In this document: piece after piece, positions 1 through 16,560 of the stretch | Layout of the letters: each line of letters opens with the position of its first letter | Position numbering within the stretch: position 1 is the first letter of the stretch | Virus genome (UHGV): UHGV-0139590 | Strand: one strand, 5' to 3' | Origin: a virus | DNA length: 33,699 nt | The notes under the pieces: generated by a model | What the model saw: only the letters and a program-made list of their open reading frames with translations | What the model was told of the DNA's origin: nothing | The model's database searches: none | Program-made: the position numbers and the translations under genes

Positions 1-3000
1 CGTCGGCGTCTGTCCGGGCGCAATGGCCGCAGTGGGCGCAATGCGCGCAACGGGAAGGACGCCAGCCGCAACCGTGGCGCTGACAAGGGTAAGGGCGGCA
101 CCAGCTCGCGCACCGACGGCGAGAAGGGCAAACGTCCGGGTAAATCCGGCCAGACTGATGGACCACAGACCGACAAGAGCCGCTCAAAATCCAGCCCGGA
201 GAAGGCAGGAAAGCCGGGCAAAACACCGGGCAAGGCACCGACCACTAAAGCACCGGGCGGCAAGCTGAAAGCGATCCTGGGCGGCAAGGCGGTCAAGGTT
301 GCTGGTGGCGTGGCCGCGACCGGCGCACTGACGACCACTGCCGCTGCGCAACTGCCGGAAAAAGCCGCCGCCGTCGCCACTGAGAAAGCCGCAGCACAGG
401 CCGCGAAAACCGCAGCACCTGCCGCCAGGGCCACAGAGAAAGCGATCACCACCGCCGCCAAACCAGCCGCAGAAGCGACCGCAAAAACTGTCGCCACTGT
501 AGCGGGTACAGGCACTGCCGCAGCCGGAACCACCGCCGCCGCGAAAGCGGTCAGCGCATCCGGGGCAAAGGCCGCAGAAACCACCGCCACCAAAACCGCC
601 GAGACGGCAAGCAAAACCGCCGTGAAAACGGCAGAAACAACCACAACCAAAGTCGCAGAAACCACGGCGACCAAAACTGCGGAAACGACGGCCACCAAAA
701 CGGCAGAAACCACCGCCACAAAGACCGCCACAAAAACCGCTGAAACCACCGCGACCAAAACCGCTACCGAGGCCGGGGAAGCCGCAACCAAAAAAGGGGC
801 GCTCAGTGTCGGTTCCAAGCTGGGCGCGAAAACAGCGTTAAAAGCGATCCCGCTTATTGGTACGGCGATCGGCGTCGGTCTGGATGCCTACGAAGGCGCA
901 ACAGACGAAGAGGGCCAGCGCGAGGCATTTAAGGTCGAGGAAGGGAAGCAGGTCAGCACGCAGCAGAAGTCCGCATTTACGATGGCTAACGTCATAAACA
1001 TGGGTGGGCTGGTATCTGGTGCAGCGGGGCTCCTTGCGTCCGGTGCCAGCGCCGTAGGGATGGATAAAGTCGCCGACGCGCTGACGTTCGACACGGCCAG
1101 CATCGCGAAGGGGCTGGATAGCGGCATGACATCCGTGCGTGACGCTGTAACGAAAGTGACTGAATCCTCAGACGGGCAGAGTAAAGCCGTCACCAAAGCG
1201 CTGTCAGATCAAACCCTGGCTATCAACGCCGGCACAGATAAAACAGTGGGCGCAATTAACCGTCTGGGCACCCAGATGCAGGGCGGGGAATGGGGTCAGG
1301 ATAACGTCGGCGTCGAAGGTAAAAAGGTTTCGGATTATGCGGCTGTCGCCGTCGATAACATTTCACCGGATCTGAATATCGGCGGTAAAAACGCGAAGGG
1401 CCGGTCGTTTCGTAATAATAACATTGGGAATCTCAATTACGTCGGCCAGGAAGGGGCGCGACTGGAAGATCCAAACGGCAAGGGTGAGGCGCGTTTCGCT
1501 AAATTCAACACGCCGGAAGAGGGGTTCCGTGGGCTGGCAAACCAGCTGACGCTTTACGCTAACGGCAAATCAAAAGCCACAGGCGGGCGCAAGCTCGAAA
1601 CCGTTGAGGACATTATCGGCGTATACGCGCCGAGTAATGAGAACAACACCCAGCAGTATATTTCCTCGCTTTCCACCAAGCTGGGCGTTAAATCCAATCA
1701 GCAGCTGGATATGACCAACCCGGAAGTGATGACGCAGCTGATGCGCGGCATTGCCACCATCGAGGGCGGTAATCCGCAGGTAACGGATCAGTTTATCCGT
1801 GACTCTATCGGCCAGCATGAAAACGGGAAATGGGTAGGCGGTAAATTCAGTGAACAGTCACTGAAAGTCGTGAACGAAGAGCGCGCAAAAAAAGGGCTGG
1901 CACCGGTTGCGGCCAACTCGCTCTACAGCAGCGGTTCAAAGGTGATCACCACGCAGGGCGGCGCAGAGCCTGTCCGGCCTGCCGTATCTGACAATGCGCC
2001 GGTTGCCACTGCCGCCGTTGTACCACCGCCAGCAGCGCCGGCACAACCCGTTACGCCACCGGCACCACCAGCGCCGGTTGTAGTGCCAGCGCCTGCCGCA
2101 GCTGCCGCACCGGTCAAAACGTCGGTATCGCCGATATCGTCCGCCGCAGCTGCCACGCACCCGCTGACTATAGCCGCACCAGCCGCAACCGCGAACGCTG
2201 CCAGCAGCACTGCCACTCAGACGCTGAGTGCTGCCGTCCCGGTTTCCACTGCCGCTGGTGGAGAAGCCGCACAACCGCTATCCGCAAAACAGCACGAAGC
2301 CCAGAAGGAGAAGCAGGAAAAAGCGAAAGAGGTCAAAGGCGCTGCCGGGGAAGACTCCATAACATCCCGTTTTAAGTCGATGTTTGACAAAGGAATGGCC
2401 GCAGTCTCGGGCGCTGTCGGACAGGGTGATGCCTGGGTGCAGGAAGTGATGCAGGAAAAAGGCATTGAAGGGATGAGCAAGAATCGCCCGGACGCCGGTT
2501 TAACGCTGCCAGCCGGGGTGAAACTGCCTGCCGCGTTAGCCGATGCAGCCCGCACACCGGCAGAGATCGCCAAGCAAACCCGCGCCACCAGCGCACAGCA
2601 GATCTCCGCCTGGGAATCCGCAGCACCGGCCAGCAGCAGTCCGACCAGTACCGCTGCCGGAAAAGTAATGCCAGTCGGTCCCGTCAGCGAGGCCGAAGCT
2701 GCGATTTCGAAAGCCAGTGCAGGCACGACCATTGTTCCCGGGGCAAGCGCCACGCAGCAGGAGCCAGGCATCTTTGACAGGGCAATGAGCGGCGCAGTGG
2801 ACGGGTTAAAAGCCGTCGGCGCGTCAATCATGCCCGCCATTGGCGACACGCTAAACCAGACCGTTAGCGGCTTTAGCGGTACGCAGGTTATCAGCGATCT
2901 GATGGGCCAGGCAGGCATGGCCGATCCGTCAGTGCAACGCGCGATCGCCCCTATTACCGATAAGGCCGGAAACTGGCTGGAAGGGGGCGTGGATACGCTA

Positions 3001-3399
3001 AAGGGAGCCTCCACCACATTATTCTCTGGTCAACTTTCCGAGGGGCGCGAGGGCCGCGAAGGGAAAGAAGGAGTGATGCAGAGTGCGCAGGCAATGACAC
3101 AACCACAAATCAGGGAGCAGCCCTCATCCCTTGCGATCCCCGCCGCCATGCAATCCGTTCAGGACCTGGCTCGAAGTGGTGTCCGTACACCGTTAAGCAG
3201 CGACAACACTGCAAATTACGATGTCGATATGCTCAAGGAACTGAGAGCAATGAGCGGAACGCTGGAGCAACTTCTGGGCGTATCAAAACAGAAAGACGAC
3301 GCACCAGCGAAAGTGGTGAACACCGCACAACCGGCACCGCGCAAAGATGCGGCGCTGTCCATCAAAGACGAAGCGCTTAGCGAGTTACTGAGGGATTAA
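1..3399 (+). CDS. Large virion structural protein, 5'-truncated at window edge (tape-measure / injection-protein-like)
   Basis: Frame 1 is stop-free from nt 1 to the stop at 3397-3399. First start-like codon in the window is GTG 310, but the 103 upstream codons are open and Lys/Gly-rich, so the gene probably starts upstream of the window. Contains 8-aa T/A/K/E tandem repeats, a conserved block RNNNIGNLNYVGQEG...FAKFNTPEEGFRGLANQLTLYANG, and a Pro/Ala-rich linker. Stop lies 2 nt before the next start. Confidence 0.6.
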   Translation, partial: RRRLSGRNGRSGRNARNGKDASRNRGADKGKGGTSSRTDGEKGKRPGKSGQTDGPQTDKSRSKSSPEKAGKPGKTPGKAPTTKAPGGKLKAILGGKAVKVAGGVAATGALTTTAAAQLPEKAAAVATEKAAAQAAKTAAPAARATEKAITTAAKPAAEATAKTVATVAGTGTAAAGTTAAAKAVSASGAKAAETTATKTAETASKTAVKTAETTTTKVAETTATKTAETTATKTAETTATKTATKTAETTATKTATEAGEAATKKGALSVGSKLGAKTALKAIPLIGTAIGVGLDAYEGATDEEGQREAFKVEEGKQVSTQQKSAFTMANVINMGGLVSGAAGLLASGASAVGMDKVADALTFDTASIAKGLDSGMTSVRDAVTKVTESSDGQSKAVTKALSDQTLAINAGTDKTVGAINRLGTQMQGGEWGQDNVGVEGKKVSDYAAVAVDNISPDLNIGGKNAKGRSFRNNNIGNLNYVGQEGARLEDPNGKGEARFAKFNTPEEGFRGLANQLTLYANGKSKATGGRKLETVEDIIGVYAPSNENNTQQYISSLSTKLGVKSNQQLDMTNPEVMTQLMRGIATIEGGNPQVTDQFIRDSIGQHENGKWVGGKFSEQSLKVVNEERAKKGLAPVAANSLYSSGSKVITTQGGAEPVRPAVSDNAPVATAAVVPPPAAPAQPVTPPAPPAPVVVPAPAAAAAPVKTSVSPISSAAAATHPLTIAAPAATANAASSTATQTLSAAVPVSTAAGGEAAQPLSAKQHEAQKEKQEKAKEVKGAAGEDSITSRFKSMFDKGMAAVSGAVGQGDAWVQEVMQEKGIEGMSKNRPDAGLTLPAGVKLPAALADAARTPAEIAKQTRATSAQQISAWESAAPASSSPTSTAAGKVMPVGPVSEAEAAISKASAGTTIVPGASATQQEPGIFDRAMSGAVDGLKAVGASIMPAIGDTLNQTVSGFSGTQVISDLMGQAGMADPSVQRAIAPITDKAGNWLEGGVDTLKGASTTLFSGQLSEGREGREGKEGVMQSAQAMTQPQIREQPSSLAIPAAMQSVQDLARSGVRTPLSSDNTANYDVDMLKELRAMSGTLEQLLGVSKQKDDAPAKVVNTAQPAPRKDAALSIKDEALSELLRD
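571..768 (+). repeat. In-frame tandem repeats (~24 nt / 8 aa, consensus TKTAETTA) inside the large virion protein
   Basis: Protein reads AETTATKTAETASKTAVKTAETTTTKVAETTATKTAETTATKTAETTATKTATKTAETTATKTATEAGE. DNA units use different synonymous codons (acc/acg/aca, gcc/gcg/gca, aaa/aag). Confidence 0.7.
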
Positions 3400-3401
3400 C
3401 C

Positions 3402-3764
3402 ATGTTAAACGAGATTGATGCGCTTTTGCGCGTGGATGCTGGCGGCGTAACCGTTAAAGAGGGGGCCGCAGATACCAGCTTTATGCGCCTCGAAGAGTGG
3501 TTGCGTACTCCGCTGGGCAGCGTTTACGGCCTGCCCAGCTGGGGCAATCCCATGCAGCGTTATAAGCACGAACCTATAGGCACCGAAAGCAGCCACATGG
3601 TCGAGGTCGCCATTGAAAACGATCTGGTGATGAAGTTACGCCAGGACCTGCCCAGCATTCAGCTTCAACAGGTGCGGTGTGAAGCGATATCAGAAGACAC
3701 GCTGAATATTCGTTTTGTGATGCCTGCGGGCGAAATGAACTTCCAAATGCAGATGACCAAATAG
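3402..3764 (+). CDS. Baseplate wedge protein, gp25/W-like (120 aa)
   Basis: ATG 3402 with GAGGGA about 7 nt upstream. Size and the motif LRTPLGSVYGLPSWGNP fit gp25/GPW-type small baseplate proteins. Sits immediately upstream of a J-like gene. Confidence 0.5.
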   Translation: MLNEIDALLRVDAGGVTVKEGAADTSFMRLEEWLRTPLGSVYGLPSWGNPMQRYKHEPIGTESSHMVEVAIENDLVMKLRQDLPSIQLQQVRCEAISEDTLNIRFVMPAGEMNFQMQMTK

Positions 3765-3772
3765 GCGACACC

Positions 3773-5221
3773 ATGAGCATTAACGAGTTACTCGAAAAAT
3801 TTAACGGACTACTGGAAAAAAACACCTGGTGGGCGCGCTATGCCAACAGTCAGTTCATCCAGATGATGAGCATCTTCGGTTCGCAAATTATCTACGCAGC
3901 CCAGTCACACGCGCGCCGCGCGTTGGGGGAAGGCTTTATTTCCACCGCCACGCGACGCTCAAGTATTCTCGCTGCCGCCGAGGATCGGGGCTATGTGGGA
4001 CGACTGATTATCCCGTCGTGGGGTCGCGTCAAAATCCGCAACAAATCCGATCGGGAGATCCAGCTGCCCGCCAATGCGGAGTTATTGTCGTCGCTGGACC
4101 TGCCTTACGTGACCGCTGACGCCGTAACAATCCCTCCCGGCCAGACCGTAATTATTGATAATGTCCGCCAGATGGACAAGGTGCTGATCAGCAGCGTGAT
4201 CGACATTGCACGCCCGTTCTATACGTTGCTCCTGCCGCGTGATATCACCGCTGAAACCGCCTCAATTGACGTGTTTGTGGTGATGGACGGCGAGAAGCGG
4301 GAATGGACCTATAACCCTATGTTTCGTCTGTCACGCGCCACCAGCGAGCATTACGTGCTTGTGTACCGGCCAACTGAACAATTAGGGGTCCGCTTCGGGG
4401 ATAACTCATCCGGGGTAATGCCACCAGCCGGAAGCCGGGTAGATATTGAGGTCTGGTGCAGCAATGGCGACACCACGCTGGCGCAGGGCCAGAAACTAAC
4501 GCCTGCCGGGAATATCGCTGACATGGTGGAAATGCTGGAAGTGATCACGGAAACGCCAATCACCGGGGGAAGTGGTTTTGAAACCACGGAAGAGACACGC
4601 CATCGTGCGCAGTATCACGCCGCATATGACGAGCAGGTTGTCTGGGGCGGCGATTACCGCTATTTCCTTCATCGCCAGGTGCAGGGGATGTCATGGCTGA
4701 ATGTCTGGGGTGAGCAGCAGCAGGAAGCCTTTACCGGCCTGCGCGACCTGCGCAATATCAACACCATTTTCATTTGCGGCCACAAGCCCGGCGTGGCGCA
4801 GGATCAGCTCGAAAGCCAGCTGCGTGCCAGCCTGGCTGCAATCCCTAACGCACTGAATAAGAACTTCCGTTACATGCCGCTGGTGGCGAAACCGTTCACC
4901 ATCGTTGTGACCGGCACGGCCAATAAAAACGTGGTTATCAACGACGCGAAGAAAACCATCACGGAGACGCTGGAAGCACGCTTCGGGTATGACGCTGACA
5001 GCTTCGGGGATGAGCTGGAACGCGGCACGGACGGCGACGGCCAGAACGCTCAGGTGAAGATTAAAGATATCTGGACATGCATTGACGAGCTGGCCCTGCT
5101 GAACCGGTATGAGATTGAGGTTGTCGGCATGCGCAAACCCGAAACGCTGAGCGATTTTATCTATCTCGACACCGTAAATTCTGTGTTTGATATCAAGCAG
5201 GCAGGGGAGACAACGCGGTGA
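3773..5221 (+). CDS. Baseplate protein, J-like (482 aa)
   Basis: Long ORF following the gp25-like gene; stop overlaps the next start (GTGA). Function assigned by gene order only. Confidence 0.5.
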   Translation: MSINELLEKFNGLLEKNTWWARYANSQFIQMMSIFGSQIIYAAQSHARRALGEGFISTATRRSSILAAAEDRGYVGRLIIPSWGRVKIRNKSDREIQLPANAELLSSLDLPYVTADAVTIPPGQTVIIDNVRQMDKVLISSVIDIARPFYTLLLPRDITAETASIDVFVVMDGEKREWTYNPMFRLSRATSEHYVLVYRPTEQLGVRFGDNSSGVMPPAGSRVDIEVWCSNGDTTLAQGQKLTPAGNIADMVEMLEVITETPITGGSGFETTEETRHRAQYHAAYDEQVVWGGDYRYFLHRQVQGMSWLNVWGEQQQEAFTGLRDLRNINTIFICGHKPGVAQDQLESQLRASLAAIPNALNKNFRYMPLVAKPFTIVVTGTANKNVVINDAKKTITETLEARFGYDADSFGDELERGTDGDGQNAQVKIKDIWTCIDELALLNRYEIEVVGMRKPETLSDFIYLDTVNSVFDIKQAGETTR

Positions 5222-7404
5222 TCAAAGACTGGATTAAAAACCACCTGATCCCTGAGAAACGTGACGCCGGGTTATGGCCCGGTTTTACCGACGCACTCCA
5301 GGAAACCTACGAAGATCAGATAGAGCCACTGCTTGAGCGCCTAAGCGCGCGTAAATCGTTCTTCACCATGCACCCGGACGATCTGGATAAGCGCATCAAA
5401 GAGTACGGGCAGTTTTTCGTTATTGGTCAAAACGGCACGGCCAGCAGGCCCATTCTGCTGACCCAGCGCCTTGATGAGGTTCATTTTAAAGGGACGGATC
5501 AGCCCATCATTGCAACTTTCTGGCGCGAATTCGGTAATCTACCGGTTACGTGGGAACCGCTTTATGCGCCGGTTGACCAAGATTTATGCCCCTACGGCAT
5601 GTTTTTCACCACCGCTGCTGGAATGGAGGTAGCCGCCGCCTCATTCGGTGAGTTTTTCCTCACGTCGCGCGGCACCATCAGCGTGGATCTCAACCGGCTT
5701 TATGAGATATACGGCTTTGATGAACAGGACAAGCTGGTTAAGCGCCTTATCAGCGATTTTGACCGTATCGTTGCCCCATTGCTGCCGCTGGAAACCGTCT
5801 TTGACGGGATCTCGCTGCGTCTCGACTTCTGGCTTGAAGAGGCTCGCGACGAGATCGAAATCCTCAGCATCACCACCGGTTCGAAAGAGCCTAATTTTGT
5901 ATTCCGGCCAGCCCGGGAGCTGATGCAGTTAACGCGCACGACTATCAAGCATCCTACCGCCGCATTTGCCCCGGATCGGCGATCGCTGGATACATTTATG
6001 CTGACGCTGGACGGCATGCCGTCCGATGCCTGGCGACTTGATATGCCTGTGATTATCCCGCCTTTGCTTCCGGGAGGCCCTGAAAACGATCCGCGTCTGC
6101 GCTCGGATAATGCGCGCTTGCTACTGGATACCCTCGGCCAGTGGGGCTGCGTGATGGAACTGACTACCGGCGACGTTCGCCGCCTGGCCTTCCCGGGTTG
6201 GGCGCTTGCCGTGGTGCTGCCGGTTGCCGTCAGTGACCGGGCGCTGATCCGCAAAATCACATGGTGTAGTGAACACGACTCACAGCAGGTAATGATGTCC
6301 GCGCAGGATAACGGCCAGCAAATGACTGTTAAGGGGCAAAACGTTACCGCTTCGGCGACATTGCAGATCCCCGCGCCGATTATGGTGCTGGAAGGTGCTG
6401 TTACCCATACGCAAACCATCGTCAGTAGCTTGCTTGCCGATACTGAGAGCCAGCATATCGCCTTTGATGAAACCCCCGCTGATGCCTGGCCGCTGGATAT
6501 GCAGACCATCGCCGCGCCTATTCTTGGATCGCGCCCGGACCCGCGCTTAACCAGCCAGGGCGACACGACTTTGCTGGATACACTCGGGATGTGGGGTTGC
6601 GTCATTGAGCTGGCCGGGGGAGAGGTTCGCCGTTATGCCTTCCCGGGTTGGGCTGACCGGGTGACGTTACCCATGCCGCTGGCCGTGATCGTGAAAATAA
6701 CCTACAGCGCAGAGCATGAGATCGTGAATGCAAGTGCATCCGTTCAGGACCAGGAGCAGGGCGTGAGCCTCAAGCGGAAATCCGTTGTCACCCCGCAAAC
6801 CGTGGCGCAGGAAGAGGACGCGGCCAGTCTGAGTAAGGTCAGTACCGCCACCACGCCGGATGTGCAAGGGCAAACCGCCAGCACTGACTCGCTGCCGGTA
6901 GCCTTTGATGAAACGCCAGCCGATGCGTGGCGGCTTGATGTGCAGACTATCCCTGCGCCGGTAGTGCCGGGATCGCGCCCGGACACCCGCCTGAGCAGTG
7001 ACGGCACAAAGGTCACGCTGGAGACACTCGGCATGTGGGGCTGCGTCATTGAGCTGACCACTGGCGATGTATTCCGCTTCGCCTTCCCTGGATGGGCTGA
7101 CCGCGCCATTCTGCCGTTTGAAATAGCGCAGATCCGCAAAATCACCTACAGCAACGAGCAGGATATCAATTCCCTGAGCGCCAACGTGCAGGAGAAGTCC
7201 GACCAGACCAGCACGGCAACTACCCGCGCCACGTTAAATCAGTCCGTGACGGAAACCACAACGGAAATGACAGGCGGACAGACCACAGACCAATGGAGTG
7301 CCACGGCAGAAGTGAATAAACCGAACGTACAGCCAGACCCGGCAACCATTGACAGTATGCCGCTTGACGCGTGGCCGCTGGACCAGGAGATCCCGCGAGA
7401 GTAA
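5218..7404 (+). CDS. Tail/baseplate protein with three tandem ~145-aa domain repeats (728 aa)
   Basis: GTG start overlapping the upstream stop, GGGGAG 9 nt upstream. Three repeats share DAWxLDxxxIxxPxxxGxRPxxRLxSxxxxxLLDTLGxWGCVxELxxGxVRRxAFPGWA, plus a partial fourth copy at the C-terminus (DSMPLDAWPLDQEIPRE). Confidence 0.65.
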   Translation: MIKDWIKNHLIPEKRDAGLWPGFTDALQETYEDQIEPLLERLSARKSFFTMHPDDLDKRIKEYGQFFVIGQNGTASRPILLTQRLDEVHFKGTDQPIIATFWREFGNLPVTWEPLYAPVDQDLCPYGMFFTTAAGMEVAAASFGEFFLTSRGTISVDLNRLYEIYGFDEQDKLVKRLISDFDRIVAPLLPLETVFDGISLRLDFWLEEARDEIEILSITTGSKEPNFVFRPARELMQLTRTTIKHPTAAFAPDRRSLDTFMLTLDGMPSDAWRLDMPVIIPPLLPGGPENDPRLRSDNARLLLDTLGQWGCVMELTTGDVRRLAFPGWALAVVLPVAVSDRALIRKITWCSEHDSQQVMMSAQDNGQQMTVKGQNVTASATLQIPAPIMVLEGAVTHTQTIVSSLLADTESQHIAFDETPADAWPLDMQTIAAPILGSRPDPRLTSQGDTTLLDTLGMWGCVIELAGGEVRRYAFPGWADRVTLPMPLAVIVKITYSAEHEIVNASASVQDQEQGVSLKRKSVVTPQTVAQEEDAASLSKVSTATTPDVQGQTASTDSLPVAFDETPADAWRLDVQTIPAPVVPGSRPDTRLSSDGTKVTLETLGMWGCVIELTTGDVFRFAFPGWADRAILPFEIAQIRKITYSNEQDINSLSANVQEKSDQTSTATTRATLNQSVTETTTEMTGGQTTDQWSATAEVNKPNVQPDPATIDSMPLDAWPLDQEIPRE
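5990..7404 (+). repeat. Three tandem coding repeats (~440-480 nt period) plus a partial fourth
   Basis: Repeat units begin near 6010, 6456 and 6898; partial copy 7346-7404. Similarity is visible at both protein and DNA level. Confidence 0.7.
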
Positions 7405-7416
7405 TGCAGTTATAGT

Positions 7417-7457
7417 GTGTGACTGTCATATTGTAATACAGTCACACGCACCTTTTT
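7417..7457 (+). terminator. Perfect 10-bp inverted repeat (GTGTGACTGT-N11-ACAGTCACAC) followed 5 nt later by TTTTT; terminator or operator
   Basis: Lies 13 nt after the stop of the 728-aa gene. The T-run is separated from the stem by GCACC, so an operator is equally possible. Confidence 0.4.
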
Positions 7458-7490
7458 CTTGCCTTCCCGGGCAGGAAACCCCTCAACGTC

Positions 7491-7510
7491 CAAAGTACAG
7501 ACTCAATAAC
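7491..7510 (+). promoter_or_regulatory. Conserved promoter-like box, copy 1 (CAAAGTACAGACTCAATAAC)
   Basis: Matches boxes at 12045, 12443, 20413 and partly 25250. Located about 35 nt upstream of the tail-fibre operon start. Confidence 0.4.
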
Positions 7511-7544
7511 ATCCGATCGATGAATCAATCAACAGGAGTTGAAA

Positions 7545-8003
7545 ATGTCGGAAGTTATTTCTTATGCGTCAGCCACTGGCGCGCTCTATAAAGCACAACT
7601 GCTGGATTACTACTACACACGCCGCGCGGATTCAGCCATCGGTCTGGGTAAACGCTTCCAGATGATGAAAGCCTATTGGGGTAAGTCGAATCTGGTTAAG
7701 CAAAATCCGACTGGTGGCTGGACCATTGACGATATCCCTACCAACTTCACAAACGCCAATTTGCTGGGCAAGTTTGCCGAGTGCGATCTGATCTGTACCC
7801 GCCAGGGCGCAACCATCACCGTTAACGTAGTGCTGCCGGAAAGTAAGCTGCCTGCTAACGCCGTGTATGACTTCAATACCCTGACGCTGGTTGATGCTGA
7901 TGGCGTCGCTTTTGCGGTTCTCTGCGCGCAGCAGGACAGCATCTACAAAGGCAAGATTTACAGCATCCTTCTGACCATCGAACAGAAAGGTAGCGGCGCA
8001 TGA
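7545..8003 (+). CDS. Small tail-fibre-operon protein (152 aa), function unknown
   Basis: ATG 7545 with AGGAG 6 nt upstream (an in-frame TTG at 7539 is less likely). Stop overlaps the next start (ATGA). Confidence 0.6.
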   Translation: MSEVISYASATGALYKAQLLDYYYTRRADSAIGLGKRFQMMKAYWGKSNLVKQNPTGGWTIDDIPTNFTNANLLGKFAECDLICTRQGATITVNVVLPESKLPANAVYDFNTLTLVDADGVAFAVLCAQQDSIYKGKIYSILLTIEQKGSGA

Positions 8004-10096
8004 GTGAGACAATTAGCGGGGTATCCATCCTGAGCGCGGAAACCAAGCGCGCGCTGGTGGCCGACGTTCAGTTTTTTGAAACCTATACGTCCGCCGCCTT
8101 TAACCGCAAGATGCGCGGCATTGTTAAACCTGGTTTTTACGCCGGATTTGATGCCGTGCTGGCTGGCGGGCTTAAAATCAACATCACGTCGGCAAACGAA
8201 TCAGGAAAGCGCGGCGTAGCCTCCGTGGACGTGGGCGAATATCAGATTTCCGTCCAGCAGGTTGAAGATGTCGGCTTTACACTGCCAGCGGGCGCAACCA
8301 CGCGCGTGGTGCTGGAAGCCAACTATCAGAATGGCGTGAAAACAAACCAGGTTGATTCGAACTCCGGCATTCAGGCGGCGCGACTCTTCCTGGCAGATGT
8401 AAGCGTGGCGCTGGCCGGTAATCAGCTGGAGCTATGCCGCTTTACCGTGCCTGCCGGTACGGTAAATTTAACCCAGGCTATGCTGAGCAAGCAAAATCGC
8501 CCGGATAAATCCATCGGCATTGAGCTGAGCAACGACGCTGAAGGCAGTACCACCGAGGGCGATGCTTACAAAGCCGCCACCATCGCAGCACTTAAACGCG
8601 CACTGGCTCTTTCGGTACAGGCGCGGGGTGAGTTGCCCGATACTGCCAATCTTAACAAATACGGCCCTACGCCAGATCGTGTCGGTCAGTGGAGCAAGTC
8701 AACGGCAACCGGCGCGACCATCGTCAATGGCTACCCGGAAAATGACGCTATCGGGGTTGTTGAGGTGTCTAAAGCCGGTGCCTCGAATGGGACCCAGCGA
8801 TTCACTCTGGTAAATGGCAATGTTTATACCCGCTCACTGACCGCCGCATGGAATGGCGTGGATGGGCCGTGGGGTGCTTGGAATGCGCCGTATGAAGAAG
8901 CCCCATTCCCTGATGTATGGATTCCATTAAATGACAGCCTGACTATGCTTGCCGGTTTCGGCCCATATGACCGCATTACTTTTGGAGATCAATATGCCGA
9001 GCTGCCAACCCGTAGTGTAAAACTGACCCGCGCAACGACGGCAACGTATATCGACAAATCCGGTGTGCTACAGGTTGCAGACATCAACGAGCCGCGTTTC
9101 GAGAAAGAGGGGTTGCTGATTGAAGGGCAGAGCACCAATTTGCTCAGATGGTCATCACCAGTACAGACTTCAGGCACATTTCGAAATAGTCCAAATGTAG
9201 GAATTTCTTTCTTACCCGCTGGCGGTGTTGAGTTAACAAAAGAGGCGAGCACTGGATTTTGGTTCGAACAAAACACAGGGGCTACAGACTATGATCCTGC
9301 TAATTCTGCGGCATTATCTGTCAACCTGAAATTTAAGGACGGTTTGGACGTAAGGCTGCAACTTCTTCGTTATTCAAGCGAAGGCGATGTCGGCGTTGCG
9401 TCTATCTCCGCAGTCAACGGTCGTAATACATTATCTATACCGGTGGTCGGCGGCACAGTTTTGCAGCGTTTAGGTCTGCGCATCACAGTGGGTGATACTG
9501 TTCCAATTGGGGAGGTGGTGATTGTTGATCGTATGCAAATTGAGCCTCAGGCGATCGCTACTTCGTACATCCCAACAAACGGATCACCAGTAACCCGCGC
9601 GGCTGACAATTGCACCCTACCACGCTCAGGAAATGACAACTATTACGGTGAGTTTTCCTATAGCGTTGAGGTGCATGCTAACGGTTTAACTCAAACAAGT
9701 TCAGACGCAAATGACCGTAGACATATTCTCTCTATATTCCCTTCATCTACTGAATGGGTCATGAGCTACATGGAGCCATCAGCAGGCTCAACGGGTAAAG
9801 TGCGCCAGACCTATGGCCCCGCGACTTATATCCAAAGCTCAAAAGCAATAGATGATGGGAAAACGCATCTTGTGGCGTTCACAACGAACTTGATTAAAAA
9901 TGCCCTTACAGTGGATGGCAGCGAGGTCGCTATTGGGACACAAGTCAGACCGGTTCCAGGCTCAGTTTCTGCTATTAACCAACTTATTGTTTTGGGTGCA
10001 ACTTCCTCACCCACGCGCATGTTAAACGGCCACCTTCGCAATCTTCGCATCTGGCACAAAACGTTAACTCCTAATCAAATCAAAGGGCTCCGCTAA
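8000..10096 (+). CDS. Tail fibre protein with C-terminal LamG-like (concanavalin-type lectin) domain (698 aa)
   Basis: C-terminus LNGHLRNLRIWHKTLTPNQIKGLR fits the Laminin_G_3 pattern common in phage fibres. The central block (PFPDVWIPLNDSL...TATYIDKSGVLQVADINEPRFEKEGLLIEGQSTNLL) is shared with the downstream paralogue. Confidence 0.75.
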   Translation: MSETISGVSILSAETKRALVADVQFFETYTSAAFNRKMRGIVKPGFYAGFDAVLAGGLKINITSANESGKRGVASVDVGEYQISVQQVEDVGFTLPAGATTRVVLEANYQNGVKTNQVDSNSGIQAARLFLADVSVALAGNQLELCRFTVPAGTVNLTQAMLSKQNRPDKSIGIELSNDAEGSTTEGDAYKAATIAALKRALALSVQARGELPDTANLNKYGPTPDRVGQWSKSTATGATIVNGYPENDAIGVVEVSKAGASNGTQRFTLVNGNVYTRSLTAAWNGVDGPWGAWNAPYEEAPFPDVWIPLNDSLTMLAGFGPYDRITFGDQYAELPTRSVKLTRATTATYIDKSGVLQVADINEPRFEKEGLLIEGQSTNLLRWSSPVQTSGTFRNSPNVGISFLPAGGVELTKEASTGFWFEQNTGATDYDPANSAALSVNLKFKDGLDVRLQLLRYSSEGDVGVASISAVNGRNTLSIPVVGGTVLQRLGLRITVGDTVPIGEVVIVDRMQIEPQAIATSYIPTNGSPVTRAADNCTLPRSGNDNYYGEFSYSVEVHANGLTQTSSDANDRRHILSIFPSSTEWVMSYMEPSAGSTGKVRQTYGPATYIQSSKAIDDGKTHLVAFTTNLIKNALTVDGSEVAIGTQVRPVPGSVSAINQLIVLGATSSPTRMLNGHLRNLRIWHKTLTPNQIKGLR

Positions 10097-10380
10097 TGAG
10101 AGATCTGTATTTGCGTTTTGCTGATGCCGAAGAAATGCACCAGCAATTGACCGATTTTGGCTTCCAGGCGGATGAAGATCAGGGCGTTATTTATCACCCT
10201 GAGATCTGCCTTGATGTCGTTGGCGTTATCAGCACGGTGACAGGTGAAGACGAAGCGGCTGTATATGCCACCGAACCCGGTTTTCACGTAAACATTCGTG
10301 TGATTAATGATCAGTTGGATTTGTCGGGCTTAAGTGAATTCGCCGTTTACCCGAAGACCCCAGCTCGCGTGTGGGCGTAA
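10096..10380 (+). CDS. Small fibre-associated protein (94 aa), paralogue of 11703..11990
   Basis: ATG overlaps the fibre stop (TAATG). MRDLYLRFADAEEM...YHPEICLDVVGV...PARVWA closely parallels the second copy. Confidence 0.6.
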   Translation: MRDLYLRFADAEEMHQQLTDFGFQADEDQGVIYHPEICLDVVGVISTVTGEDEAAVYATEPGFHVNIRVINDQLDLSGLSEFAVYPKTPARVWA

Positions 10381-10389
10381 GGAAATATC

Positions 10390-11703
10390 ATGGCATTAAG
10401 AAAAGACTTTATTGAAATGAAAGAAGATGCTCCGTTCCCAGATGTCTGGGTGCCGCTGAGCGACAGTCTACGCTTGCTGGCGGGGTTGGCTCCCTTCGAT
10501 AAACAGATGGCCCACGACCCAGCATTGGAATTGACTTCAAAATCGGTGACGCTTACCCGCGCTTCTACGGCAACTTATATTGATAAAGCTGGTGTACTGA
10601 AAACAGCGGCGATAAACGAGCCTCGCTTTGAAAAAGAGGGTTTATTGATTGAGGGGCAGAGCACTAACCTCTTAATCAATAGCGAAGATCCAACAAAGTG
10701 GGGGACGTTTACTCTTTTAGACATTTCAACCCTTAGGGATGGCACGACACAGGCAGCGACGGTTAAAGGCACGGTAAATGCGACCAATGACACCAATAAT
10801 ATTTGGTTATGTGGTAGCCCCAGCCTTCCTGCCGTGGTGGGTGATGTATGGACCTTATCCGCACGTTTCAAGGCCTCCTCACATAGAGTTCGCCTCCGGT
10901 TTACCATCGACGGCGTGCAATTAGGTGACGTATTTTTCGACGGTGTTACAGGTGAGCAAGTCAGGGGTTTGTCCGGCGGCGTTACATACACTACAAAGCG
11001 GGGAAGCGACGGGTATATTTACGTTAGCGCCACAATCACAACGTCAATAGCGGGGTTGTTAGTCGGACAATTTTGGTTTAATGATGACGCACCAATTCCC
11101 GCTGGTTCGTTTGTCTGCCTGCAAACCATCCAGTTGGAAAAAAACGCAGTAGCAACCAGTTATATTCCAACGGGATCAGCCGCTGTTACGCGAGCTACTG
11201 ATGTCTGCACGCTTCAACGTTACGGTAACGACAACTACTTCGGACCCGTCACTTTTTCCGCAGAGATTCACCTTAACGGGAAAACTAACGCAGACGGTGC
11301 AATGACTTCTCGTCGAGGGATCATATCGGCTAAACCGTCATCAACAGAGTCTTACACGCTGATGTTGGCTACATCCGGCGCAAATGCAGGGAAACCGTGC
11401 TTTGGATACGGCAATAGTGATTTCGTCTACGGCTCTACGGGTCTTGATGATGGGAAAGGTCATGTTGTAGTCGCCAGATTTGACGGCTCTGACAAGTATC
11501 TGTGTTCAGATGGGGTAATGTCAGTAGGTCGCGCAGCAACTAAACCGGCATCAGGAAATGTGGATGCCACGAACCAAAATATCCAGATCGGTTACGGTGC
11601 TGCTTATGTTACGCCGGGGCACTCAGTGCTAAACGGCCACATTAGAAACATTCGTATCTGGCATCGCGCGCTTAATGATCGCCAAGTTAAAGGAATTCGC
11701 TGA
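10390..11703 (+). CDS. Second tail-fibre cassette with LamG-like C-terminus (437 aa), lacks the N-terminal ~290 aa of the first fibre
   Basis: ATG 10390 with AAGGAAAT upstream. Begins at the conserved block shared with the 698-aa fibre. C-terminus LNGHIRNIRIWHRALNDRQVKGIR. Confidence 0.7.
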   Translation: MALRKDFIEMKEDAPFPDVWVPLSDSLRLLAGLAPFDKQMAHDPALELTSKSVTLTRASTATYIDKAGVLKTAAINEPRFEKEGLLIEGQSTNLLINSEDPTKWGTFTLLDISTLRDGTTQAATVKGTVNATNDTNNIWLCGSPSLPAVVGDVWTLSARFKASSHRVRLRFTIDGVQLGDVFFDGVTGEQVRGLSGGVTYTTKRGSDGYIYVSATITTSIAGLLVGQFWFNDDAPIPAGSFVCLQTIQLEKNAVATSYIPTGSAAVTRATDVCTLQRYGNDNYFGPVTFSAEIHLNGKTNADGAMTSRRGIISAKPSSTESYTLMLATSGANAGKPCFGYGNSDFVYGSTGLDDGKGHVVVARFDGSDKYLCSDGVMSVGRAATKPASGNVDATNQNIQIGYGAAYVTPGHSVLNGHIRNIRIWHRALNDRQVKGIR

Positions 11704-11990
11704 TGAGAGATTTATATTTACGCTTCGCAGATGCGGACGAAATGCAGATGGTATTACTGGCCTTGGGTTTTCAGAAAGAAGAAGAGCAAGCCGGTCTTTA
11801 TCACCCTGATATCTGCCTCGATGTGGTGGGCGTTATGACCGAGCCTCAAAACCCGGAAGAAGAGAACCCTGATCTGATTGAGTTACCTGGCTATCATGCT
11901 AATGTGCGTGTCATTGACGATCAGCTGGATATTTCAGCGCTGGATGACTTCACCATCCACCCGGAAACACCGTCGCGCGTCTGGGCGTGA
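11703..11990 (+). CDS. Small fibre-associated protein (95 aa), paralogue of 10096..10380
   Basis: ATG overlaps the upstream stop (TGATG). Same sequence pattern as the first copy. Confidence 0.6.
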   Translation: MRDLYLRFADADEMQMVLLALGFQKEEEQAGLYHPDICLDVVGVMTEPQNPEEENPDLIELPGYHANVRVIDDQLDISALDDFTIHPETPSRVWA

Positions 11991-12814: not shown

Positions 12815-13266
12815 TGAGTAATTTGCAGGAGTATTGCTTTTACGGAATGGCCGCGCTGGCCGTCTTTGATCGCTTCATCCTGAAACGTAAAAAAATCAGA
12901 CTGGTGGAGTGTGGTGATGCCGTGGTGCGGGGGCAGGCGCTGGCATTCCCGCTGCGGTTTAACGTCTCTTGCTCCCGCCTGACTGGCGCAATGGTCGAGT
13001 ACAGCCTGCGTGACTCCAAAAACCCGACGGCGGTTATCACCGGTAAGACGCGGACGCTGGATTTATCAGTAAAAGGGATGAACGAAGAGTATTTGCTGAT
13101 TGACCAACGCTACCTGGAGGCCGGGACGTGGTTTCTATCGGTCCGTGTCACTCATGGCAACAGCCGCATGAATCCGTTATACCGAATTTTCCCGGTTCAG
13201 GAATCAATTACGCACAATTACAGCGTCACAAAAGATGAGCAGGGGGTTTTCAGTGTCAGCAACTAA
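12811..13266 (+). CDS. Hypothetical protein (151 aa) with N-terminal hydrophobic segment
   Basis: ATG 12811 with strong SD AGGAGGTG; overlaps the holin stop. Confidence 0.55.
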   Translation: MMSNLQEYCFYGMAALAVFDRFILKRKKIRLVECGDAVVRGQALAFPLRFNVSCSRLTGAMVEYSLRDSKNPTAVITGKTRTLDLSVKGMNEEYLLIDQRYLEAGTWFLSVRVTHGNSRMNPLYRIFPVQESITHNYSVTKDEQGVFSVSN

Positions 13267-13879
13267 CGGCTATGTAACCCTTAACTTTGACGAACTCAAT
13301 GTTAAAGGACTGGAAAAGCTTAAAAAAGCAGTCAGTAAGGCCGGTTATGAAGTCGTGAAGGTCACACCAGCAGGCCAGGCACGGCGCAAAGACGGTATTC
13401 CAACAAAAACCTTTGAGCTGAAAGGTATCGACGAGCAGGTAATGGTTGTTCAGGTCAATAACACTGGCGACATTTCCGGCATAAAGCTCAACGGCAAAAA
13501 CTCACCGTACACGCCTGTTAAGACTATGGCCGAGCTGGGAAAAGCACTGGCCGATTTGTTTAAGAAAGGCTCGACGGCGTTCCAAAAGGCCCTGGCGCGA
13601 AAGCTGGCCCGCGCGGCTAAAAAGGACCTCGATAAGGACAAGCCAAACACCAGCAAGGGTGTGAAATCCGGCGTCCAGATGCTCAGTGATGCCCGCGCTC
13701 GCCGTGATGCGCAGAAAGAGGCGATTGAGGCCGTTAATGAAAAACTCACCGCCCTGAAAACAGAGCAGGATATGACGCAGAAGGAGCACGGCAACCTGCA
13801 AAACGAGCTAAATCTGGAAGTGGCGAAAACAACTCAACTCCAGGACCTTATTGCTAAAGCGAAAGGCGGCAACGAATGA
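13235..13879 (+). CDS. Hypothetical coiled-coil protein (214 aa; start may be GTG 13253)
   Basis: Overlaps the upstream gene by 32 nt at ATG 13235. Alternative GTG 13253 has AGGGGG 7 nt upstream. Stop overlaps the next start (ATGA). Size is similar to P1 Hdf as recalled from memory (not verified). Confidence 0.5.
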   Translation: MSRGFSVSATNGYVTLNFDELNVKGLEKLKKAVSKAGYEVVKVTPAGQARRKDGIPTKTFELKGIDEQVMVVQVNNTGDISGIKLNGKNSPYTPVKTMAELGKALADLFKKGSTAFQKALARKLARAAKKDLDKDKPNTSKGVKSGVQMLSDARARRDAQKEAIEAVNEKLTALKTEQDMTQKEHGNLQNELNLEVAKTTQLQDLIAKAKGGNE

Positions 13880-16560
13880 TTGATTTAACGAAAGAGATTG
13901 AGTTAACTGACAAGCCAAACTTTGTGGCTCCGCCTCTTACTGATTCGGTTTACGCGGAGTTAATGACGGGCAGCAGCGCCGATATGATGCTGGAAAGTGT
14001 CACTATTGACGATGTGGATCATGCCTACCTGGGCGATGAAATGCTTTACGTCAGTATCGCCACTGGCAAAGCCATGTTCGAGGCCGTCACCAGTGAGCGC
14101 CTGCGCTTGTCACAGACTATGCGCGCGTTCGCGCGCTCGCTAAACCGTGGCCTGAACGGCACCGGCATCAAAGCGGGAACCGATGACGCCGGTATTGATG
14201 AAGAGGGGCGCAAAACCATTGGCGGCGCGATCATTGGCAAGGTTCGTCGGGTGAACAACATCCCGATCATGACCGCGCTAATTCCGCTCTCTGACGGGCA
14301 GTCTATCTCACTGATTTTCCATTCCCCGACAGCGGATAACGGACGCATCAAAAATAGCGATCTGCTGGTGGCGTTTCGCTTCCTGCTGAATAAGCGCGAC
14401 GTGACGCATATCGTTGCCCCGATTGGTGGTCGTGACGTGTCGTTGCAGCAAGTAAGCCAAGCGCTGGCGAACCTTGCCGAGCGTAACAGCGCGAAATTCA
14501 CCAAACAGCAATCCGCACAGGTGAAGCTGCGCGCTGATATTGAGGGGTTGAACGCGGAAGCGGACCAACTGAGCGAGCAGCAGTCCTCCCTCCTGGAACA
14601 GGTCGAGACACACCAGCAATCCCTGATGAATAGCCAGAGTGACGCGCAACAGCTGCGAGGCAAACTCGCCACACAGCGACAGATTAACGCCGAACTGGAA
14701 GCGCAGCTGGCCGCACTGAAAACGAACGCCGGCAGTGATGTAATTACGCTTCCGGGAGAGACTGGCCGCACCTTCTCTGACACTACGCGTAAGGTGAAAG
14801 AAGGGCTTTCCATGAGCGGCACCACCACGCTCAGCAATGGTGCGGAAGTGGCCTACAAAACAGCTGACGACAACGGCGATCTGGTGGGCTGGGTACAGAT
14901 TACCGATCCTTCCGGGCAGGTTTACAAAATGCCGTCATCGTCACCCCAGGGCGCAAAGATGGGCGAAACGGCAACCAAACTGCTGAAAGCCTACCGCGAG
15001 AACAAAGCGGATAAGTTTGCCGTGGCAGCACCGGTAGAACCGACCCCGGGAAGCGATGACACACAGCAGGGAGCAGGCGCTGATTTGCAGCAGTTGGTGG
15101 CCGTCATCGGTAATGGTCTGACAGACGCGGCAGCGGCTGACTGGGCGGCGAATAAAAAAGCCACGCCTGATTTTATTCGCTTCCTGATCCGCCAGTACGG
15201 CACCGCTGATGATAAAGCCAAACAGCGATTCGTTGAAGGGATCGAGAAGAGCTGGAAAATCAAGTTGCCGGGTACGGGCAGCGACAATCGGCTGGTGGCG
15301 AAACTGGCGCGCGATTACGTTGATAGCATGAAGCGGCCAACCGGCACTGATTTCCTCAACACCTATTTCATGGGCGAAGCGCCGAAAGCCAGCCAGAACC
15401 CGGTTTACGTTCCGCACGTTGAAGGCGGTGATTTCTTTGCAGCACCAATAAATACGGCCATAGATCGCTACCGCGAAGCGCTGCCAAACCCGAAATTGAA
15501 CAGTACCCTGAAAGAGCAGGCTAATTTCCTGATCCGTCTGGTCAAGGCCGAGAAAGATTTCGAAGGCCTGGCAGAGAGCGTGGAAGATGGTTTTGCACGT
15601 CTTGCTGACGGCTCAATATTGACGCTTGAAGACGGCAAGCTGTTATTGTCCACAACCGATGACGAAACGCACAATGCGAAATACTCCGTTGACGTTGGCG
15701 ATCGCGCCCTGGAGGAAGCCATTGAAGATCTGGTGAGTTCGTATCGTCTGGGTAACGTGGAATACATGACGCCGGAAAGCCGCGAGAAAAACAATCCTGA
15801 GCCGCCAAAACCCGTTAGCCAGCCATCACCCGGCAATTACCGCTATGCGCTGGTTAACCGCCCGGCAGGCCCGGCGACTATCCCGGAAGGCAATACGGCC
15901 ATCCTGCCGCCTATATCGCAAAACGAGCCGTATGGCCGCATCGCACGCCACGGTTTCGTAACGTATGACGCGCCGCTGTCAGACGCTGATATGGCCGCGT
16001 TTGAGCTGAAACTTATCCCTACGCATGCTGATCTTGATGCGCTGGCAACGACGATCGCTCAGGGCCGCATGAACAGTTACGCCGCTGAGTATCTGGAAAT
16101 GGCGACGGATGATGCCGATACGTTCCGCTCGCAGGTCAGTATCTTTGCCCGTAAAGACGCGCCTAACGTGGCATTCCCGCAGGGCGATGATCTGGCGTAC
16201 TTCCTCCAGGCGATGAAGGTTGCGCTGGCCGAGGCGGCGAAAACCCCGCCAGCAAAAGATACAGGCCCTGCCGAAGGAGAAGAAATTGTGAAAAAAGAGG
16301 CTTCCGAAGCCGCAGGAAGCGAAGAGCCATCCGAGGCCGATAAGGCAGCGAATGATGCGCTGGCATACCTGCAAAGCATCCTGTCATTGCAGTCAAAAGA
16401 TATGGGCGTTATCCGTGAAGCACGAACCAAAGTCCGTGGCGCGATTGGTACGCTCCAGGCAGCTGGCCGTGACGTGGATAATGAACCTCTGGTAAACGAT
16501 GCTGCGCAGCACCTTTCCGATCTGCTGGTGGCAATTCAGCGTGAAGGAGCAACCGCATGA
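13876..16560 (+). CDS. Large putative virion-internal protein (894 aa), DarA-like by position
   Basis: Long ORF with good codon structure and a central coiled-coil (EQQSSLLEQVETHQQSLMNSQSDAQQLRGKLATQRQINAELEAQLAALK). Function inferred only by analogy to the P1 darA operon, which follows lydA-lydB. Confidence 0.65.
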   Translation: MIDLTKEIELTDKPNFVAPPLTDSVYAELMTGSSADMMLESVTIDDVDHAYLGDEMLYVSIATGKAMFEAVTSERLRLSQTMRAFARSLNRGLNGTGIKAGTDDAGIDEEGRKTIGGAIIGKVRRVNNIPIMTALIPLSDGQSISLIFHSPTADNGRIKNSDLLVAFRFLLNKRDVTHIVAPIGGRDVSLQQVSQALANLAERNSAKFTKQQSAQVKLRADIEGLNAEADQLSEQQSSLLEQVETHQQSLMNSQSDAQQLRGKLATQRQINAELEAQLAALKTNAGSDVITLPGETGRTFSDTTRKVKEGLSMSGTTTLSNGAEVAYKTADDNGDLVGWVQITDPSGQVYKMPSSSPQGAKMGETATKLLKAYRENKADKFAVAAPVEPTPGSDDTQQGAGADLQQLVAVIGNGLTDAAAADWAANKKATPDFIRFLIRQYGTADDKAKQRFVEGIEKSWKIKLPGTGSDNRLVAKLARDYVDSMKRPTGTDFLNTYFMGEAPKASQNPVYVPHVEGGDFFAAPINTAIDRYREALPNPKLNSTLKEQANFLIRLVKAEKDFEGLAESVEDGFARLADGSILTLEDGKLLLSTTDDETHNAKYSVDVGDRALEEAIEDLVSSYRLGNVEYMTPESREKNNPEPPKPVSQPSPGNYRYALVNRPAGPATIPEGNTAILPPISQNEPYGRIARHGFVTYDAPLSDADMAAFELKLIPTHADLDALATTIAQGRMNSYAAEYLEMATDDADTFRSQVSIFARKDAPNVAFPQGDDLAYFLQAMKVALAEAAKTPPAKDTGPAEGEEIVKKEASEAAGSEEPSEADKAANDALAYLQSILSLQSKDMGVIREARTKVRGAIGTLQAAGRDVDNEPLVNDAAQHLSDLLVAIQREGATA

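Follow-up and report, generated by a model that had tools for sequence, protein, structure and literature searches.

What kind of protein ends in the tandem repeats encoded in the viral genome UHGV-0139590, and what might such an array do for the virion? Analyzed here over its full length of 33,699 nucleotides (nt; hereafter the window), this DNA contains an open reading frame (ORF) for a protein of 728 amino acids (aa), which a sequence-only reading had described as a baseplate or tail protein built from three repeats of ~145 aa plus a partial fourth and had likened to carbohydrate-binding or Ig-like arrays. We propose that it is a baseplate wedge protein of the phage P1 gp16 type, in which the C-terminal arm has expanded into three added units, each led by a copy of an ancestral peptide, and that these units may serve to dock a conserved phage partner. 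Identity and architecture, taken together, we regard as close to certain, and to the whole statement, with the docking function included, we assign a probability of roughly 0.4.

The N-terminal part of the protein matches phrog_2015 over aa 1-276 (E 9e-91) and, by phmmer, the PDB chain 9ay5_a, ‘Gp16’ (E 1.9e-51; structures 9ay5/9vzk), with aa 3-239 aligned to Gp16 residues 3-240, a region that takes in the P1 residues of the triplex core bundle formed with two copies of BplA. Homology to P1 gp16 and D6 orf37 extends over the N-terminal ~240-257 aa, at 41% and 46-49% identity, respectively (41% and 46.5% by tblastn), and the gene occupies the same position between bplA and R, within an order (sit, pmgA, bplA, 16, R, S) that is the same in the window, D6 and P1. 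The ORF starts with GTG, within a 4-nt overlap with the stop of the upstream bplA-like gene. A Leclercia adecarboxylata protein recorded on an 85-kb contig is 100% identical to the 728-aa protein and carries PF26903 (Phage_P1_Gp16), as do the latter’s database relatives. All of these alignments identify the protein as orthologous to P1 gp16, that is, to wedge protein BW2, and its earlier placement in the baseplate is thereby borne out; ‘tail tube protein’, the old label of the gp16 family, is outdated, and the window itself comes from a P1/D6-like phage-plasmid of Leclercia.

The tandem repeats behind this N-terminal domain are likewise real. Pairwise blastp gives 46% identity between units 1 and 2 (121 aa, E 9e-34), 46% between units 1 and 3 (113 aa, E 1e-34) and 61% between units 2 and 3 (109 aa, E 1e-46), far beyond chance, and both the repeat starts that the sequence-only reading had placed near 6010, 6456 and 6898 and its consensus, DAWxLD...RPxxRL...LLDTLGxWGCVxELxxGxVRRxAFPGWA, are correct. 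With the borders set as listed in Table 1 the units measure 147-152 aa; the conserved part is the first ~105 aa of each ~148-aa unit, while the remaining ~45-aa linker is 8-25% identical between units and consists to 60-69% of S, T, Q, N, A, G and P. The hexapeptide DAWxLD occurs four times in the protein, at aa 270, 422, 569 and 717 (nt 6025, 6481, 6922 and 7366). At the DNA level the array takes the form of repeat families with start-to-start spacings of 441-456 nt, namely an 87-nt family at 6123/6573/7017 (70-80% identity), a 59-nt pair at 6460/6901 (83% identity) and an 18-nt family of four copies at 6024/6480/6921/7365. The DNA copies are too diverged for Tandem Repeats Finder, which missed the array, and a six-frame translation of the window contained no further module copy elsewhere. 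An antisense 301-aa ORF within the repeat region (5700-6605, minus strand) is not backed by homology and is best explained as an artefact of the G+C-rich composition there (61%).

In each unit the DAWxLD peptide comes first, then a Pro-rich stretch, and behind them a six-stranded beta domain of ~65 aa and a disordered linker of ~45 aa, rich in S, T and Q, are predicted. An AlphaFold2 (AF2) run on one unit, based on an 11-sequence alignment, returned a mean predicted local distance difference test score (pLDDT) of 70 and a predicted template modelling score (pTM) of 0.63, with six strands and a short helix between two disordered ends and with unit residues 33-95 at pLDDT 78-85. The full-length run, based on a 39-sequence alignment, yielded N-terminal helices at aa 20-46, 53-63 and 77-104 (pLDDT 63-81 over aa 1-180) and three separate beta cores at ~aa 290-352, 440-500 and 590-650 (pLDDT 64-77), with the motifs and linkers between the cores at pLDDT 23-46; its pTM of 0.25 permits no claim on inter-domain packing. 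The arrangement that these models predict is one of beads on a string, with a ~65-aa domain that would fold independently. Independent folding is thus predicted for the six-stranded core (pLDDT 64-85) and not for the ~145-aa repeat as a whole, which is core, motif and disordered linker rather than a single domain.

The proposed nature of the repeats fared less well. Pfam gave no Ig, FN3, Big or carbohydrate-binding module (CBM) match on the 728-aa protein, NCBIfam none on the module, the module profile retrieved no PDB sequence below E 0.3, and Foldseek comparison of the module model with PDB and BFVD produced nothing with E below 0.2. A carbohydrate-binding role accordingly finds no Pfam, NCBIfam or PDB-profile match, and neither CBM or lectin homology, nor a corresponding fold match, nor a conserved aromatic sugar-binding platform was found in the module; fold searches return only weak, generic beta-sandwich matches, which together with the lack of an Ig family match leave ‘Ig-like’ unproven. 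A Pfam match to NifT/FixU at aa 457-486 (E 0.001, 19.2 bits against a cut-off of 22.6) was taken as chance, and the idea that the module might be gpR or the fibre N-terminus, copied and fused to the wedge protein, was set aside at hhalign probabilities of 0.2% and 0.8%, respectively.

The origin of the array becomes legible in relatives that carry no module. D6 orf37 (281 aa) ends in ...LDVTPLDAWPLDYHLQPV (...LHLDVTPLDAWPLDYHLQPV), which contains PLDAWPLD, and ~30 module-free relatives of ~280 aa, from Citrobacter, Escherichia, Rosenbergiella, Tatumella and others, have the motif at aa 267-271 and end 6-15 residues later, with the conserved peptide reading hD-x-h-P-x-D-A-W-x-L-D at aa ~270. 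The first motif of the 728-aa protein, at aa 270, lies exactly at this ancestral position, so that the protein can be read as the complete ancestral one, terminal peptide included, to which three units and a final copy with a short tail have been added; P1 gp16 and D6 orf37 stop just past the peptide, whereas the window protein runs ~450 aa further. The peptide is present in every copy, including the terminal one with no domain behind it, and this comparison makes it older than the modules. What had been taken for a truncated fourth repeat (aa 705-728) contains the lead peptide motif only and, on the same alignments, is the ancestral C-terminal peptide of the gp16 family rather than a decayed repeat.

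That copy number might vary between relatives had been anticipated from the sequence alone, and homology searches, translated plasmid loci and a hidden Markov model (HMM) scan of all retrieved proteins confirm it, with 0, 1, 2 or 3 modules. None are found in P1 and D6 (278-281 aa) and in many other proteins of ~280 aa. A single module is followed by linker and tail in P0011-13 (429-433 aa) and closes the protein at the domain in P0014, P0018-20 and P0062 (351-380 aa). Two modules occur in Leclercia P0008-10 (579-581 aa), in strongly diverged form in Enterobacter hormaechei (600 aa), and in P0015 (545 aa), an N-terminally incomplete fragment resembling a Xenorhabdus bovienii protein; three are present in the window protein (728 aa) and in six clusters at 94-96% identity to it. 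A Pantoea/Enterobacter class of 363 aa, negative in the HMM scan, has the layout PADAWWND ... D-x-R ... FP ... LP ... Y and can be aligned as one diverged module. Among the single-module relatives, P0018 and P0062 have an extra short Y-D-G-S/T-rich tail past the module (...YDGTSLYDGSTLYSGS; ...KYDGSLRYDGTVSYSG), and the C-terminus of the wedge protein seems to take other types of extension too. On the X. bovienii CS03 megaplasmid (L003, 5381-7077) the gp16-like gene is full of stop codons after ~aa 212 and annotated as two ORFs, with module-like sequence continuing in another frame and IS630 and ISAs1 transposases nearby, which suggests that this P1-like region is a decaying prophage-plasmid.

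Comparison of the units across this series identifies the one that differs. Unit 1 has orthologues in all one-, two- and three-module relatives (77-86% identity) and unit 3 is the orthologue of module 2 in the two-module proteins (75% identity), which makes unit 2 the extra one. At the nucleotide level the second unit of the two-copy gene resembles linker 1 of the window in its left part and unit 3 in its right part; the switch point between two-copy and three-copy genes lies near motif-coding DNA, and the difference is one whole unit, a pattern that fits unequal recombination as the route of whole-unit gain or loss. Against the three-module window, gpR is 97% identical in the two-module phage and 88% in the one-module phage, the S N-terminus 80% and 67%, and BplA 89% and 96%, while in a zero-module Citrobacter phage R, the S N-terminus and BplA are 52-69% identical, in line with general divergence. 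As far as these alignments tell, none of the three changes in a manner tied to module number, and in the few loci examined module number showed no convincing correlation with the number of fibre genes.

Searched against 1.84 billion representative proteins, the module profile gave 11 matches. Nine of these belong to the gp16 family, and the other two, P0022 and P0023, are repeat-rich proteins with no relationship to it (E 1e-4 to 4e-4). A tblastn search with the repeat region as query had no match among 50,697 phage records, relatives being confined to plasmids and metagenomic proteins, and a broadened module alignment used in a word-indexed homology search added one 129-aa fragment and nothing new. 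By these searches the module is confined to proteins of the gp16 family, in which it is conserved across Leclercia, Enterobacter, Xenorhabdus, Serratia and Pantoea hosts. Relative to the two-module Leclercia plasmid, the ratio of nonsynonymous to synonymous substitution rates (dN/dS) is 0.10-0.12 in the module cores, 0.11 in the terminal tail and 0.38-0.50 in the linkers, values that are rough because dS, at 0.7-1.3, is close to saturation; aa 1-257 give 0.03 against a two-module relative. Substitution patterns of this kind indicate purifying selection on the beta cores and the tail and relaxed constraint on the linkers. Over 23 modules, the most diverged included, four residues are invariant, namely D13 and W15 in the peptide and D34 and R36 where the chain enters the first strand, and F68, P69 and Y92 are nearly so, which means that the peptide is constrained at least as much as the fold.

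The P1 virion provides the setting in which these features can be interpreted. Two P1 cryo-electron microscopy (cryo-EM) studies assign gp16, as BW2, to the peripheral baseplate, where one gp16 and two BplA conformers form a conserved triplex within a wedge of composition PmgA-gp16-(BplA)2, and both see weak density for fibres that are attached to gp16, the fibre-bearing member of that triplex. Residues 240-278 of gp16 are unmodelled in the P1 preprint, which names a gpR dimer and/or these very residues as the proposed attachment point of the long tail fibres, describes gp16 as structurally like T4 gp7 and gpR as indirectly similar to T4 gp8, and assigns gp16 a role as mechanical trigger; both gp16 and R were detected in the P1 virion proteome. 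The same place in the conserved triplex of the wedge belongs, in T4, to gp7, with which gp8 is associated and to which the gp9 trimer, the carrier of the long tail fibre, attaches; the window protein likewise grows at its distal end. The two proteins have no detectable sequence similarity, however, and the domains of gp7 are distinct and rigidly packed, in contrast to the tandem small domains on predicted-disordered linkers seen here. A precedent for multiplied fibre sites is Pam3 gp23, the BW2-type protein of a minimal myophage, in which two platforms dock two fibres per wedge; these platforms are cysteine-rich regions disulfide-bonded to the fibres, unlike the tandem beta modules, and homology is not expected.

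In the mechanism that we favor, the N-terminal ~257 aa would form the triplex bundle of the baseplate together with two BplA copies, as in the P1 structures, and the flexible C-terminal arm at the fibre-attachment site has been extended and triplicated, with each added unit opening with a fresh peptide and the last copy closing the protein. At six copies per baseplate, the rim would carry 18 beta domains and 24 peptide motifs, all of them flexibly tethered. There, the peptide, the domain or both may bind a conserved phage partner at the fibre-attachment site, be it the gpR dimer and/or the fibre N-terminus, and the peripheral baseplate could thus gain anchoring points that reach farther or are more numerous. 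Partner docking is put forward only tentatively, and it is preferred because peptide and domain are exclusive to the family, are conserved across host genera while fibre tips vary, and lie at the P1 fibre contact; the role would be an accessory one, since zero-module relatives assemble with partners that are unchanged by copy number.

Several points weigh against this proposal. A long floppy tether is an odd transmitter for the mechanical trigger assigned to gp16. P1 gp16 itself ends in ...RADDLLLDSDA, of which ADDLLLD matches the PxDAWxLD peptide that D6 and the ~30 relatives share with the window protein only loosely. P0014, P0016 and P0018-20 stop right after the beta domain without a terminal peptide, so that this copy of it must be dispensable. 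The Enterobacter hormaechei plasmid combines two modules with one S-type fibre gene, IS3-interrupted, and copy number there does not track fibre genes. Finally, the weak fold matches of the module are to FN3/Ig-like sandwiches (Z no higher than 4.3), a fold that elsewhere in phage proteins is regarded as an adhesion decoration.

This last point leads to the main rival, in which the units are Ig/FN3-like beads on tethers that make weak, reversible contacts with the cell envelope (lipopolysaccharide, capsule), more copies providing more reach or avidity, as likened to Hoc and to the C-terminal Big_2 domain of lambda gpV. C-terminal, optional and copy-variable additions to virion surface proteins, which is what the units are, reportedly represent the typical pattern of decoration. 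The long, disordered, S/T/Q-rich linkers, the constancy of R and S across copy numbers and the FN3-like fold hints, weak as they are, agree with such a role, and the long tethers could plausibly span the gap of about 530 Å by which the P1 baseplate is reportedly held from the cell surface. We nonetheless consider it rather unlikely: the fold similarity is not significant (Z <=4.3, Foldseek E >0.2), Pfam recognizes no Ig, FN3, Big or CBM domain, and neither Hoc nor the gpV C-terminus has a significant sequence or fold match to the module. Whereas Ig-like, FN3 and Big_2 decorations are shuffled widely, the module has been recovered from no protein outside the gp16 family and never comes without a conserved leader peptide, which precedes every domain and also exists domain-free, and its cores, at dN/dS ~0.1, are conserved over hosts with differing surfaces.

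A stronger form of partner docking, which we judge unlikely, would make each unit a self-contained docking station of DAWxLD peptide and beta domain that recruits an extra gpR dimer, an extra fibre or the second LamG tip protein encoded at 10390-11703. Were this true, unit number would set the number of receptor-binding appendages per wedge, up to four on each of six wedges, and unequal recombination within one gene would act as an evolutionary dial for baseplate valency.

Less likely than adhesion, and improbable in our estimate, is an expansion without a specific ligand, in which the array either moves the terminal peptide, in this view the true docking element, farther from the wedge on a longer flexible connection and so alters fibre reach or geometry, or is a nearly neutral product of recombination. 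Copy number does shift among close relatives without changes in the partners, the junction between two-copy and three-copy genes does lie near repeated motif DNA, and other C-terminal extensions are found at the same site, for example in P0064 (349 aa) and in the Y-D-G-rich tails of P0018/P0062. Yet the beta cores are under purifying selection while the linkers, the true spacers, drift; the units are old (46-61% identity, dS near saturation) and hence not recent neutral duplicates; and several relatives have no terminal peptide past the last module. Least probable of all is an inter-wedge belt, in which the beta domain would bind the DAWxLD peptide of its own or a neighboring chain by strand complementation and the resulting garland would stabilize the extended baseplate, for although peptide and domain always co-occur in the repeats, peptides number domains plus one in tail-bearing proteins and the module-only AF2 model has a short strand bridge at W15-R16 (within a 10-residue block of mean pLDDT 68), module-free relatives keep the peptide without any domain and the motifs of the full-length model are undocked at pLDDT <50.

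Table 1. Coordinates of the wedge gene, its parts and its neighbors in the window
Feature	Position (nt)	Strand	Basis or detail
sit-like transglycosylase/tape measure	310-3399		window gene order
pmgA-like gene (gp25-like)	3402-3764		window gene order
BplA-like wedge protein (T4 gp6 / P2 gpJ-like), upstream partner	3773-5221	+	phrog_1369 E 8e-161; weak Pfam Gp6-like_1st match under curated cut-off
Whole gene, P1 gp16-type baseplate wedge protein (BW2, T4 gp7-like), 728 aa	5218-7404	+	ORF, phrog_2015, PDB 9ay5_a
N-terminal wedge domain, aa 1-257	5218-5988	+	homologue of the P1 gp16 region resolved in the structures, which connects two BplA copies in the triplex
Unit 1, aa 258-409	5989-6444	+	motif LDGMPSDAWRLD (DAWRLD nt 6025-6042, ancestral position ~270), Pro-rich stretch
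Unit 1, predicted beta core, ~aa 290-352	6085-6273	+
Unit 1, linker, aa 365-409	6310-6444	+
Unit 2, aa 410-556	6445-6885	+	motif FDETPADAWPLD (DAWPLD nt 6481-6498); predicted beta core ~aa 440-500; linker aa 512-556
Unit 3, aa 557-704	6886-7329	+	motif FDETPADAWRLD (DAWRLD nt 6922-6939); predicted beta core ~aa 590-650; T/S/Q-rich linker aa 660-704
C-terminal tail, aa 705-728 and stop	7330-7404	+	QPDPATIDSMPLDAWPLDQEIPRE; ancestral terminal peptide of the gp16 family
gpR-like protein, downstream partner	7545-8003	+	phrog_2032 E 4e-56; 42% identity to P1 R
S-like tail fibre, 698 aa; P1-S-type N-terminus, then Laminin_G_3 tip	8000-10096	+	library matches, comparison to relatives

The surroundings of the wedge gene follow the P1 pattern in order and depart from it in the fibre genes. 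The gpR-like gene probably begins at the ATG at 7545 (the mechanical ORF begins at a TTG at 7539), and its product belongs to PF26881 (Phage_P1_tail_fiber_R), a Pfam name taken from the orthologue. Within the preceding intergenic region (7405-7544) a 9-bp inverted repeat, GTGTGACTG...CAGTCACAC, at about 7417-7448 coincides in position with the P1 late promoter LPs (-22 box AAGTTACTT, -10 TACAAT). Further downstream, a fibre-tip cassette is present in same-strand tandem duplication (8000-11990): the S-like gene is followed by a 94-aa ORF (10096-10380), a 437-aa ORF (10390-11703) and a 95-aa ORF (11703-11990), the last of which is a paralogue of the 94-aa ORF. The 437-aa product aligns to aa 299-698 of S only, at 66% identity over the first 96 aa and 41% over the last 202, and is a second LamG tip protein without the baseplate-proximal N-terminus. 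P1 and D6, by contrast, have an inverted Sv/Sv' arrangement that is switched by Cin.

Farther along the window lie holin/lysis genes, Hdf-like and DarB-like antirestriction genes and a portal gene. An Hdf-like protein (13235-13879), a large protein annotated as ‘released from the phage upon host infection’ (13876-16560, phrog_1926) and a 2280-aa DarB-like methyltransferase/helicase protein (25318-32160; phrog_1685, with DarB-like antirestriction phrog_10089) appear to make up a defence-against-restriction set of the P1 type. Between the antirestriction and morphogenesis blocks, a 365-aa transposase ORF on the minus strand (17008-18105; phrog_506, E 1e-66) appears to mark an insertion sequence (IS) element inserted in the phage-plasmid.

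The gp16 family and its place in the virion are already known, P1 gp16 having been placed in the baseplate only by cryo-EM work dated 2025-2026; we found no paper on the C-terminal module, on its coupling to the terminal peptide or on the series of 0-3 copies, and the module is absent from Pfam, NCBIfam and PDB. Should the units be decorations only, they would make a modest addition to the catalog of phage accessory domains, and the use of the finding lies mainly in work on P1-type baseplates and phage-plasmid host range rather than in any surprise of general biological importance. Within that field, a natural series of 0-3 modules on closely similar baseplates pinpoints a peptide, hDxxPxDAWxLD at aa ~270, and a domain that appear to be kept by selection. 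The same series would provide a genetic handle on how fibres and gpR dock to the wedge and on whether the number or reach of appendages can be tuned, with a bearing on host-range engineering of P1-type transducing phages and phage-plasmids.

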